IMG/VR virus record: IMGVR_UViG_3300029951_000007
Reading direction: 5' to 3' (one strand)
Origin: a virus
Length of the DNA: 64,000 nucleotides
Part shown: positions 9,258-15,826 of the stretch, piece after piece
How the letters are laid out: the number at the start of each line of letters is the position of its first letter
How positions within the stretch are numbered: the first letter of the stretch is position 1
The notes under the pieces: model-generated
Seen by the model: only the letters and a program-made list of their open reading frames with translations
Databases searched by the model: none
Told to the model about the DNA's origin: nothing
Position numbers and translations under genes: made by a program

Positions 9258-10118
9258 TTATTTTGCTAGAGCTTTGCGGCGTGCCCAAGAAGCTAGTCTG
9301 CTCTTCGACTGCCGTGATCTGTAGTCTCTGTCGGCCCACTGTGACTTAGCACGTTGTGATAGTACTTCCGTAGACTGTGGTGCACGATTCATGTTCTGCA
9401 GCCCACGTTCTAGTTTAGCGCGGCTTTCTTTATTGGCCCATTGCGCTTTGGCGCGCTCGGAACATGCTTGTTTCTGCGCAGGTGTTTTCTTCTTACCAAC
9501 GTTAGCGCCGTGGTTAGCTCGCCAAACAGGGTCTTCCCACAAGCGTTTGAACATCTTGCTAGTATTGGCTTTGAATTTAGCCGTCCTAGGGCGCGCACAC
9601 CGTTTGCGCAGATCAGGATCGGCTGCGTGCTTTGCCTTCAGTTGCGAGCTAACGTAAGCCCTAACTTCTGGGTCAGCGAATGTCTTCCTACATGCTGCTG
9701 CGACACTAGCACGTACAGCCGGGTCAGAGAATCGTTTTAACTGCGCTTTGCGCATGTTGTTTCTAGCTACGGCACCGAATTCTATGTGCTGTCCACCGCC
9801 GCGTGTCAGGTTGTAGCCACCACCTAACGGGTCGTCAACGAACGTGTGCAGCTTCGCGATGTAATACGTTTCCATTTCATTCAGACGACTTATTGGGCCA
9901 GTCCAGATCACTTCCCAACTGAAACCCTCTTCGTACTTGTTCTTACGCAGTGCACTGTGGAAGTAGGACTTGCATCCTTTACGTGCTTGTCCTACGTGAC
10001 CTTTCCATCGTTTCAGCACAGTCAGCACGTTCTTATGCTGACCAACGTATCCCATGTCATTCTTTAGATTTACAGAATGGTATATACACCCAATCTGTTC
10101 TTGCTTCGATTTCTTCAT
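9258..10118 (-). CDS. GIY-YIG homing endonuclease (free-standing)
   Basis: It has GCIYHSVNLKNDMGYVGQ, a KxxRWKGH block, YNLTRGGG, and a C-terminal repeated (A/E)DPxxR DNA-binding-like module. It is a paralog of 15098..15826. Confidence 0.8.
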   Translation of the reverse strand: MKKSKQEQIGCIYHSVNLKNDMGYVGQHKNVLTVLKRWKGHVGQARKGCKSYFHSALRKNKYEEGFSWEVIWTGPISRLNEMETYYIAKLHTFVDDPLGGGYNLTRGGGQHIEFGAVARNNMRKAQLKRFSDPAVRASVAAACRKTFADPEVRAYVSSQLKAKHAADPDLRKRCARPRTAKFKANTSKMFKRLWEDPVWRANHGANVGKKKTPAQKQACSERAKAQWANKESRAKLERGLQNMNRAPQSTEVLSQRAKSQWADRDYRSRQSKSRLASWARRKALAK

Positions 10119-11065: not shown

Positions 11066-11361
11066 TAAGCTCTTCCCGTTCCTGCTGCGATGGCAGCTAC
11101 GTATTCGGCCGGCAGCCAGATATATGTGAATTCTGTCTGCGCTTCCAGCGGACTGTCCTTCATCTTAGCGAGGCGTCCGTGCGCCAGCTTCAGTGTAAGC
11201 TGGCCCTCGACCGGGCCACCGCAATCGCGTAGACGAGCTAGGAGCAGTTGATTGTACTGGTCTGGGTTGGTCTTACATGCGTACAATGCCTGGATGTCGT
11301 CGGTGGATATGCTGAACGAAATGGGCTTCGGCGCTTTGAGGATCTCTTGCTCGAGGGTCAC
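11065..11361 (-). CDS. hypothetical protein
   Basis: Track ORF with start/stop coupling to its neighbours. Confidence 0.5.
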   Translation of the reverse strand: MTLEQEILKAPKPISFSISTDDIQALYACKTNPDQYNQLLLARLRDCGGPVEGQLTLKLAHGRLAKMKDSPLEAQTEFTYIWLPAEYVAAIAAGTGRA

Positions 11362-12235: not shown

Positions 12236-13521
12236 CCTAACGAGATTCGCCAGTTGGGGATCTTACCGTGCACACCGTAACGCAACGCGTCCAGATCGTC
12301 ATCCTCAATCTTCAGTGGCTGCTCGATGCCACGTTTAGCAGCGTTAGAATCCCATGCGTAATTGGGAATTCGCTTCACGAGCTCCGGGCAACCATTCTTA
12401 CTAATCATCAGCTTCCGGCGCTGCAGCAGCGTAGACACTGTATGGATGCCTTCCTTGACGGAGTTGTCGGCGTCCGTGACCCAGAAGCCACGTTGTATGA
12501 GCTCCTGCTTGAACGACGCCGCTTCGGGCGGTACAATCACCTGGAACTTATCGGCTCCGATTGCGACTAGATCGTCGGCGTATTGGCCGTCGGTCTTCAT
12601 GCGCATTTCTTTGCGGCTGTCCCAACGCTGCTCGCGCACACACCATATAACGTCGCCGTCGTCGTAGAACTCTAAGTGCGACTGGACGTGATCCACGCCA
12701 GGATCGACAGCGAACCAATGGTCGACAAACCCACCCGCGTTGCGCAGAGCGATGGGCTCCGGTGGAAGCACCGTAACCACTCCGTCCTTAGTCAACACGC
12801 CGTCGAATAGGTTAGCCGTCTCGTCGTAGCTGTCCCGATAGATGCTGCCTTCAGCAACTACCCACTGCGCAAGTATGTAGCGTTGGTAGTAGACGCCGGT
12901 CTGCGAAGCGATGATGGCCAGCTTTGACTTCTCATCGATGTTGGGGTTATCGGCCAGTCCGAAGTTGATGATCTCCAGGTCGTCCTTGAACGCCGGAGAG
13001 TCGATGACCTCAGCCTTTAAATAGCAATAGGGATTCGACGTGTTGGTGGAGGCGTAGAAGCGCGCTCCAGCCGGGGACATACGAAGGAACAGCTGCGCGA
13101 GGAATGACTTTGGATACTCGACAACTTCGTCGCCAATGGCGATGCCGATTGTCATACCAAGGATTTGGCGATAAGACGCTTCGTCCTTGGCACCCATAAC
13201 GAACCACTGCGTGCCGAACAGCCAGAGCTCGCCAGTGGACGAGTTGTAACTGTAGTTGTCCTTGCCTACAACGTTGAACAGATCGATGAGTACGTTGCGG
13301 TAGATCGTTTGCTTTGACGCGCCCGTCATCAGCCGCTTGGCGTTGGGCGGTATCTTATAACGGCACAATTGCACGATCGTCTTGGCGTTCAGCGTGAAGG
13401 TCTTAGAACTTCGCACTGTGCCAATAAGGATGGTGTACCGCTTGTCCTGCTCCGGCGGTCGCATGATGAAGGAATGCGACTTCTTGCCGAAGGGCTTGAT
13501 GATCAGCTCGGTGTCACTCAC
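12232..13521 (-). CDS. terL: terminase large subunit
   Basis: Walker A-like ILIGTVRSSKTF and Walker B-like IAIGDEVVEY, with a C-terminal nuclease-like region. At 429 aa it fits the Terminase_3/PBSX size class. Confidence 0.9.
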   Translation of the reverse strand: MSDTELIIKPFGKKSHSFIMRPPEQDKRYTILIGTVRSSKTFTLNAKTIVQLCRYKIPPNAKRLMTGASKQTIYRNVLIDLFNVVGKDNYSYNSSTGELWLFGTQWFVMGAKDEASYRQILGMTIGIAIGDEVVEYPKSFLAQLFLRMSPAGARFYASTNTSNPYCYLKAEVIDSPAFKDDLEIINFGLADNPNIDEKSKLAIIASQTGVYYQRYILAQWVVAEGSIYRDSYDETANLFDGVLTKDGVVTVLPPEPIALRNAGGFVDHWFAVDPGVDHVQSHLEFYDDGDVIWCVREQRWDSRKEMRMKTDGQYADDLVAIGADKFQVIVPPEAASFKQELIQRGFWVTDADNSVKEGIHTVSTLLQRRKLMISKNGCPELVKRIPNYAWDSNAAKRGIEQPLKIEDDDLDALRYGVHGKIPNWRISLG

Positions 13522-14206
13522 TCGGCCCAGCCTTTAGTGCTGCAAACAAACCTTCCAGCTGCTCGTTCTTTCCACCGCCGCCGAGGTCAGGCTGGCGTCC
13601 ATGCTTCTTGGGCTGTAGATGGCCCAATGTCCACTGTAACCCGGCGAATGCGAGCTTGGCTCTCTCGACGTTGTCGACGATGCGACTCTCTACTAGATCC
13701 TCAACGTCGCCGTCCCGAGTAACGACTTGCTTATGGGTGACGATGGAGTAGCTTGTAGGACGTTGAGTTATTGCCCTTGCGTCGTCTTCGAAAAGTGGTA
13801 CAAGAAACTCTTTCGCGCGCGCATGGATTTTCGAGAAGGAGTGTTCTTTATCTGCAAGCCACTTCACGAGTTGATACAGACTCGGGTTTCCTTCGATGGC
13901 TGCTAATTCACGTAACGTGCTGCCAGTAGCGATCAGCGCAAAGAGTTGCTCGCCGAGCTCGTCTGTCCATGGAAATTCTGGATTCGGTGGTCGACCAACC
14001 TTCCGCTCTGAAACTACTTGGTCCTGAATGGCGAGCTTTACTTCGGCAACAGATTCTTTGGCTTTACGTTGTGATTCTGCTTGCACAGCACGAAACACAG
14101 TCTTATTGGCTGCGGACTTCTCTGCTCGTGTGGGACGACCGTCGTGCGTTTTTGCCGGCACCTTAGCAGCAGGCGCGGTGGCCTTAGACTGCTTCTTAGA
14201 TGCCAT
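13514..14206 (-). CDS. terS: terminase small subunit (HTH)
   Basis: ATG at 14206 with a GGAG RBS. GRPPNPEFPWTDELGEQLFALIATGSTLRELAAIEGNPSLYQLVKWL is the classic TerS HTH pattern. The gene overlaps the TerL start. Confidence 0.65.
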   Translation of the reverse strand: MASKKQSKATAPAAKVPAKTHDGRPTRAEKSAANKTVFRAVQAESQRKAKESVAEVKLAIQDQVVSERKVGRPPNPEFPWTDELGEQLFALIATGSTLRELAAIEGNPSLYQLVKWLADKEHSFSKIHARAKEFLVPLFEDDARAITQRPTSYSIVTHKQVVTRDGDVEDLVESRIVDNVERAKLAFAGLQWTLGHLQPKKHGRQPDLGGGGKNEQLEGLFAALKAGPSE

Positions 14207-14685
14207 GCGGTTATATCTCCTGGGACTTAAAGCAAGGAAGGGCCGCGAACCACGTTGTGCGGTCAGCAGCCCCTCTGGACGTCCGTCTACTTGCACTCTT
14301 CTTCAGAGCAGGCAGCTATTAGGTGTTCTTACTGGTCAACTCGTACTACTTATCGAGTGACACCCTGGTCGCTGCTAACCACGCTCAATGTCGTGCGGCC
14401 TCCGTAGAGTGCCGCCGATGTAACTGTTTCCGTTATGGGTGCCAATGGCATGCTCACTCTAAAGTAAGCTGAACGGTCGTCGTTACTCACGAGAACTTTG
14501 CCGCACTCACTGCGGCTGCCCTATCCGGAGAGCGCGGAGGAAGGGTGCTCGATAACCCCGAGTCCAGGACATGCACACTCAAAGAGTGTCTCTCAACAGT
14601 TTGGTCAAAGAACGTGAGTACATCTATCTGGGTAACGTGGTGGTCCAGCCTAGATGGCTCGATTGCCCATAGCTTCTGAGCAATA
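14207..14685 (-). other. ORF-free hairpin-rich leader between tRNA-like element and terS (candidate pac region or ncRNA)
   Basis: About 480 nt with no credible ORF. Several short hairpins appear on the minus strand, for example GCCGCA-GTGAG-TGCGGC and ACACTC-TTT-GAGTGT. Confidence 0.3.
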
Positions 14686-14749
14686 TGGTCGGTGAAGAAG
14701 GATTTGAACCTCCGGCATCTAGCTCCCAAAGCTAGCGCGCCATTCACCG
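14686..14749 (-). tRNA. tRNA-Pro(UGG)-like element lacking a D-arm, CCA encoded
   Basis: The minus strand reads CGGTGAA-TGGCGCG-CTAGC-TTTGGGA-GCTAG-ATGCC-GGAGG-TTCAAAT-CCTTC-TTCACCG-A-CCA. It has a 7-bp acceptor stem, a 5-bp anticodon stem and a T-arm with GGTTCAAATCC. Only 7 nt occupy the position where the D-arm should be. Confidence 0.5.
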
Positions 14750-14836: not shown

Positions 14837-14842
14837 ATTATA
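14837..14842 (-). promoter_or_regulatory. TATAAT box (minus strand) upstream of tRNA-like element
   Basis: The minus strand reads AGCCTATAATATATG. It is followed by TGTAGGG..TTTAGCGG boxes similar to the 16.5-kb repeats. Confidence 0.35.
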
Positions 14843-15097: not shown

Positions 15098-15826
15098 TCA
15101 CTTCGCAGCCAATTTCTTAGCTGCATTTGCGCGACGCGTTTCCCAAATCTTTGCGGATAAAGCTGCTCTGTCTTCTGCCGAACGTGCTGCCCAACCACGT
15201 TTAGAAGCTTCGGAACACTTAGCAACAAACTCTGGGCTTTCAAACTTGGACATCAAGAGTTCACGTTTTGTGGCCCACATAGACTTAGACTGTTTACTGA
15301 CTAAGCTACGTCTACGTGGTGATCGCACCTCTTCCAGATGCGCAGCTTTCTTTACGGGATCCTTAAACCGCTCTTTACATGCTGCGCTTACTGAGTCACG
15401 AAACTCTTTACTAGCGAAGAGTACGGTTTTCTTTGCTCGGTAGTCTGGATCTGCCCACACAGCTTTCTGTTTCTTAGAAAGAAGTTTTAATGATCTCTTT
15501 GAAAACTGCATTCCACCACAACCACCAGTGGTGAGATTGTAGCCGTGACCATTGTCGATGAACGTGTCAAGCTTCGCGATGTAAAATTCTTCTTTCTCAT
15601 TCAACAGCGAAACAGGCCCACGCCAAACAACTGATTTCTCAAACGCTTCCCACCCATACAAACGCATCGCATTATACAGCGGATGCTTTATCTTCTTCAC
15701 AAACGCAGCACATTTGTGCCCACGCCAACGAACGAGTTCATTTACTCGTTCATGCTGCCCTACGTAACCCTTACCATTTACAGTACAATGAAAGTAGTAT
15801 ATGAGACCTTGCTGTTCATTCTTCAT
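15098..15826 (-). CDS. GIY-YIG homing endonuclease (free-standing), paralog of 9258..10118
   Basis: GLIYYFHCTVNGKGYVGQ, RWRGH and YNLTTGGCGG are followed by a repeated DPxxR/K module. Confidence 0.8.
   Translation of the reverse strand: MKNEQQGLIYYFHCTVNGKGYVGQHERVNELVRWRGHKCAAFVKKIKHPLYNAMRLYGWEAFEKSVVWRGPVSLLNEKEEFYIAKLDTFIDNGHGYNLTTGGCGGMQFSKRSLKLLSKKQKAVWADPDYRAKKTVLFASKEFRDSVSAACKERFKDPVKKAAHLEEVRSPRRRSLVSKQSKSMWATKRELLMSKFESPEFVAKCSEASKRGWAARSAEDRAALSAKIWETRRANAAKKLAAK

Follow-up and report, generated by a model that had tools for sequence, protein, structure and literature searches.

The 64-nt element at 14686 to 14749 (minus strand) of the window, a 64,000-nt stretch from the ~100-kb genome of a tailed phage, is very probably a very young pseudogene allele of tRNA-Pro(UGG) that came from a recurrent slippage hotspot. 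The allele is without 13 nt of the D-arm; its acceptor, anticodon, and T arms and its CCA end are intact. By itself, a D-armless allele has little significance, as it is one more broken accessory tRNA gene. The deleted and the intact alleles occur in a near-identical background within the phage population, and they constitute a natural pair with which to ask whether carrying such a tRNA costs the phage, benefits it, or makes no difference.

Structure and detection of the 64-nt element

Read on the minus strand (14749 to 14686), the element has an acceptor stem with 7/7 pairs, A73, and an encoded CCA, together with a 5/5 anticodon stem, a 7-nt UGG loop, a 5-nt variable region, and a canonical T arm. 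The spacing between the acceptor and anticodon stems is only 7 nt. An earlier note on this DNA had listed these features (stems, UGG loop, T arm, CCA, and 7-nt gap), and all of them read as described there. By homology the element is a tRNA-Pro: it has in common with the tRNA-Pro(UGG) of bacteria and phages (RF00005, the proM type of E. coli) the C1-G72 pair, A73, CCA, the UGG anticodon with G37, the 5-nt variable loop, and the T arm. It differs from them in the 13 nt of the D-arm, namely a 9-nt loop (with G15, G18, and G19) and one stem strand, and does not have the four arms of a cloverleaf.

Recognition of the element depends on the method. ARAGORN, which the earlier note had suggested as a check, called no tRNA gene over the window and missed the element, whereas the Rfam tRNA model RF00005 recognises it at 49.4 bits (E 5.8e-9; cut-off 29 bits) with 11 D-loop model positions deleted. 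The fold z-score of the element is -3.32, with none of 200 shuffles equally stable. In the predicted fold, the leftover GGCG pairs with the variable loop to give a compact three-helix RNA.

Intact alleles in the sister strain and in relatives

L029, a sister contig from this ~100-kb phage, was reached through a TerS variant, and its upstream genes lie 13 nt farther from terS. It carries an intact 77-nt tRNA-Pro(UGG) at 2445-2521, a textbook member of the family that is called by ARAGORN. The contig matches the window without a mismatch over 2,457 nt before the gene, over 536 nt after it, and at each of the 64 bases that both have. The sole difference over that span is one 13-nt gap in the BLAST alignment, corresponding to the 9-nt D-loop and one GCGC strand of the D-stem. 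A single GCGC is left over (14737 to 14740, minus strand), and the deletion junction lies inside this 4-nt microhomology. Relative to its intact orthologue, the element thus carries a 13-nt disabling lesion of the kind by which a tRNA pseudogene is recognised. A matching 13-nt offset, known from gene coordinates alone, suggests an intact allele in ERZ27249652 as well.

The phage is present in many assemblies, and 13 further contigs, of ENA and JGI origin, have the identical deletion (L030 and L208 being the same contig). The allele tally is 13 deleted contigs against one intact allele that was read and one that is likely, counts that are biased toward the strain of the window because the look-ups were seeded with its own proteins. 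The index blocks listing phage proteins numbered 58 and 52 for TerL and 107 for the nuclease. An assembly or sequencing artefact as the source of the deletion is scarcely credible. PCR can delete between short repeats, and one bacterial look-alike (L183) was set aside, not accepted as a genuine deletion, since it sits in a visibly garbled region and is likely an assembly artefact. However, the same junction is present in 13 contigs from different samples in both ENA and JGI, and a repeat of 4 nt is too short for long-k-mer assemblers to collapse.

More distant relatives bear on the direction of the change. In three of them (L199, L201, and L203), whose TerL is 77-83% identical, the matching region contains a canonical tRNA-Pro(UGG) with the D-arm unchanged. 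Among the four intact lineages, all nine variable stem pairs have changed on both sides, that is, in a compensatory manner, and 0 of 84 cells are mispaired. Because of these compensatory pairs, the lack of mispairs, and the D-arm shared with the outgroups, the full tRNA is the ancestral and selected form in this phage family. Comparison of the alleles therefore shows the deletion to be derived, since intact relatives show selection on the full tRNA, and very recent, since no other substitution stands alongside it. The D-armless form is confined to one phage population, the sister strain and the outgroups being intact, and so it is not conserved across lineages.

That all remaining tRNA features are perfect fits a new lesion but would equally fit a working RNA, and the tidy three-helix fold could be held against a pseudogene in the same way. 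The phage allele, however, has zero substitutions since the lesion and is too young for decay; the perfect stems of the 64-nt form reflect its youth, not selection on the short form. The suggestion in the earlier note of a pseudogene with a clean D-loop deletion thus gains support from full-length tRNA-Pro genes in the sister strain and three more distant relatives, while its word "decaying" is slightly too strong, as no substitution has accumulated. The same genes, which the note itself had named as contrary evidence, speak against its alternative of a functional D-armless tRNA or tRNA mimic, and nothing specific favours the decoy for host anticodon nucleases that it mentioned.

Other relatives have no tRNA gene at the locus. 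In L010 the tRNA has been lost almost exactly, with both flanks shared with L199; L202, L204, L205, and L207 are likewise without a tRNA gene, and of these four only L202 and L204 carry a permuted tmRNA. Since such relatives exist, the phage tRNA-Pro is dispensable. The contigs of the nearest TerS relatives (69-78%) begin too close to terS for the tRNA site to show.

Elsewhere in the window, a block of ~230 nt at approximately 11090-11320 with some 45 substitutions splits two haplotypes (L024, L029, and L151), which are otherwise more than 99.9% identical. This block points to recent recombination in the phage population.

Recurrent loss at the GCGC repeat

In tRNA-Pro, each strand of the D-stem reads GCGC, and the strands form a 4-nt direct repeat and a hairpin at once. 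Slipped-strand deletion is classically found where a short direct repeat also closes a hairpin. The loop of 9 nt and one GCGC would be removed if the two copies mispaired by slippage or were joined by microhomology repair; what is observed is the loss of 13 nt with its ends, and slippage is the probable cause. The loss would have been tolerated because a phage tRNA is an optional extra, and the allele may have spread along with the dominant strain.

The same loss is found in bacteria. A scan of 185,579 genomes for D-armless tRNA-Pro gave 16 matches. In seven of them, the L183 copy that was set aside included, the acceptor stem is complete and the 13-nt loss is the same (with a shifted register in L187). 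The other nine have broken acceptor stems and were not counted as deletions, except for L191. The loss recurs in 7-8 bacterial assemblies, the tRNA-Pro copies concerned being L184, L186, L187, L188, L189, L191, and L194. Copies with a like loss at GCGC come from Colwellia sp. 12G3, Undibacterium TS12, Arsenophonus ARAF (in a shifted register), Scytonema, a Neisseriaceae MAG, and a Micromonosporaceae tRNA array. These copies stand in a cellular or array context, and some have decayed further, unlike the phage allele. An intact tRNA-Pro(UGG) is present elsewhere in all five bacterial genomes checked.

The Colwellia copies illustrate two stages. The short copy of Colwellia sp. 12G3 is the same as the intact copies apart from the missing 13 nt. 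Its orthologue in another Colwellia (L191) has gained 6 changes more; three of these break stem pairs (two in the acceptor, one in the T stem) and one breaks the CCA end, and this is the expected later fate of such a deletion allele. A decayed tRNA-His-like sequence lies just upstream of the short tRNA-Pro in this Colwellia pair.

Taken across these genomes, the GCGC D-stem of tRNA-Pro is a recurrent deletion hotspot; a literature search found no publication on it. The hotspot yields convincing D-armless look-alikes that ARAGORN misses. Therefore, D-armless matches should not be taken as minimal tRNAs before a sister strain has been checked. Exact-pattern scans of viral contigs found neither the allele of the window nor a similar D-armless tRNA-Pro. 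A looser viral scan gave 28 matches, which were rejected as D-armless tRNAs because they are intact tRNAs out of register or 3' att-like fragments.

The 64-nt RNA is probably still transcribed. Published E. coli data make a role in translation unlikely, since this RNA is missing the D/T elbow, G15, and the loop recognised by EF-P. G18 and G19, the elbow bases of tRNA, are also among the lost bases. The 9-nt D-loop of tRNA-Pro is a determinant for EF-P (PMC4890201), and G15-C48 (the Levitt pair) is a determinant for ProRS and an identity element for proline (PMC9976931).

A precedent for a functional D-armless tRNA in translation is animal mitochondrial tRNA-Ser(GCU), in which, as in the phage allele, the D-arm is absent and the acceptor, anticodon, and T arms are present. 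A comparable role for the phage RNA is very improbable, even though C1-G72, A73, the anticodon, G37, and CCA are all present and a compact alternative fold is predicted. The mitochondrial tRNA is old and conserved, and its partners have adapted to it, as mitochondrial D-armless tRNAs require (PMC9976931, for SerRS), whereas the phage allele is recent and polymorphic, has an intact sister, and gives no sign of adaptation. Its age is near zero, and it has no compensatory changes. C47, which enables the alternative pairing, was rejected as such a change, since the intact allele already has it, as do many cellular tRNAs. Moreover, none of the 28 viral pattern matches is a D-armless tRNA-Pro with a full acceptor stem.

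The RNA cassette upstream of terS

Downstream of the element lie terS and terL, upstream lies a GIY-YIG homing endonuclease gene, and a primase gene is on the opposite strand. Between a conserved 93-aa gene and terS, a TATAAT box is followed by an RNA cassette of variable content. The terminase small subunit gene (13514 to 14206, minus strand; 230 aa; PHROG 1482, Pfam PF20901) is located downstream of this cassette. The TATAAT box that the earlier note had placed upstream of the element on the same strand is present at 14842-14837, 87 nt before the gene, and a TATAAT or TATACT occurs in the matching intergenic region of seven of eight relatives. The box (14837 to 14842, minus strand) is probably the promoter -10 box for the RNA cassette and terS. 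It is absent from the promoter scan output because it has no recognisable -35 box.

Window-wide, there are 20 perfect TATAAT boxes, and all 13 on the plus strand fall in the rightward-transcribed arm. Most of these lack a clear -35 box, a pattern that suggests promoters relying mainly on the -10 box.

Two further roles for the DNA of the element were considered. The deletion opens an 86-aa frame at 14747-14487, which was rejected as a gene: in the intact allele it stops after 6 codons, a ribosome-binding site is not evident, gene calling does not report it, and Pfam gives nothing above the cut-off. As for an attP role, both ends of the gene are present, and the acceptor stem is unlike that of cellular tRNAs sharing its anticodon arm.

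The endonuclease gene (15098 to 15826, minus strand; PHROG 314/7168/5123) is free-standing and is the same next to the deleted and intact alleles, L029 having no differences here. Another possible reading is that the deletion was selected, either as a D-armless decoy or inhibitor (of anticodon nucleases, ProRS, or EF-Tu) or through a benefit from losing the tRNA or a DNA target, for example by escape from the GIY-YIG enzyme. We regard this as quite improbable. The deleted allele is at high frequency, and its dominance among the assemblies read could signal selection and so tell against a pseudogene, although the look-ups were seeded with the proteins of the window. The T4 enzyme SegB, a GIY-YIG enzyme of a tRNA region, cleaves tRNA genes, but its site is the part from the T-loop to CCA, which the deletion leaves untouched (PMC2330249). 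Phage tRNAs are linked to tRNA-targeting defences (PMC10264068). The anticodon loop is unaltered here. In L029 the intact allele adjoins an identical nuclease gene (metagenome contigs may be chimeric), and the same loss arises in bacteria without such a context and then decays.

It is likewise a long shot that the 64-nt RNA is useful, as a processed and possibly charged tRNA mimic or decoy, and has driven the allele to high frequency. If true, the phage would offer a natural, D-armless, tRNA-like effector at the moment of its origin, and the intact allele would be its isogenic control.

Related GIY-YIG genes vary in place around the terminase genes among relatives, lying between terS and terL or after terL; the genes compared are those at 15098-15826 and 9258-10118 of the window and those of L015, L020, L203, and L204.

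The leader upstream of the tRNA has no unusual structure (z -0.07), and the 471 nt downstream of the tRNA fold with a z-score of -3.24. Within the cassette, ~200 nt downstream of the tRNA element and upstream of terS, lies a conserved structured RNA motif (14390 to 14486, minus strand) that is not part of the tRNA. It comprises an outer stem, an internal loop, a second stem stacked on the first, a variable inner hairpin, and a trailing GC-rich hairpin. The motif is found in five lineages (window 14486-14390, minus strand; L199:3875-3972; L010:1074-1172; L201:3855-3972; L203:3791-3888). In the window the motif has a local z-score of -3.03. In these five sequences helices 1 and 2 are fully paired. 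Two-sided changes occur in 11 of 23 pairs, and the covariation exceeds shuffles and slid controls, but this calls for caution, as the structure comes from the same five sequences. The motif has no match in Rfam, and a strict pattern scan of viral contigs matched two of these same phages only. It is possibly an undescribed ncRNA or leader element, and it is a better lead than the tRNA allele.

Processing of the 64-nt RNA is plausible because the acceptor and T arms with CCA are kept, as in RNase P minihelix substrates, and RNase P may still cleave its 5' end because these arms are intact. The acceptor and T stems are the parts that bacterial RNase P contacts, and the enzyme also takes minihelices and other minimal substrates, though with lower affinity (PMC11221534). 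The tRNA-like domain of tmRNA also has an acceptor and T arm with CCA and no D-stem; in contrast to it, the phage element keeps an anticodon arm, has no known reading frame or protein partner, and is not conserved in its short form. The element could accordingly be a processing mark, cut by RNase P at its intact acceptor/T arm so as to free the downstream structured RNA or the terS leader, with the D-loop loss being neutral. This is unlikely, although the tRNA heads a structured-RNA cassette in this phage family and the sequence after it is strongly folded. L010 retains the downstream motif despite having lost the tRNA, so the motif is independent of it, and in relatives with the intact tRNA the D-arm and anticodon are conserved, features that a role in processing would not by itself require. 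A processing mark and a young pseudogene can hold together.

The cassettes of the relatives contain other RNA elements. A sequence of the form CAGTACGGTAAG ... CCCGGAGGG ... CCCTTCCA, apparently structured and spotted by eye, is shared by three of them (approximately L202 225-340, L204 3190-3360, and L205 3150-3290) and has no Rfam match. Directly after the tRNA-Pro of L201 (3054-3153) there is an odd tRNA-like element that scores 34.1 bits in Rfam and is not called by ARAGORN. A permuted (two-piece) tmRNA gene is found at L201:3327-3827, L202:361-732, and L204:3422-3790, and its tag is long, 27 residues, ending in LAA or MAA.
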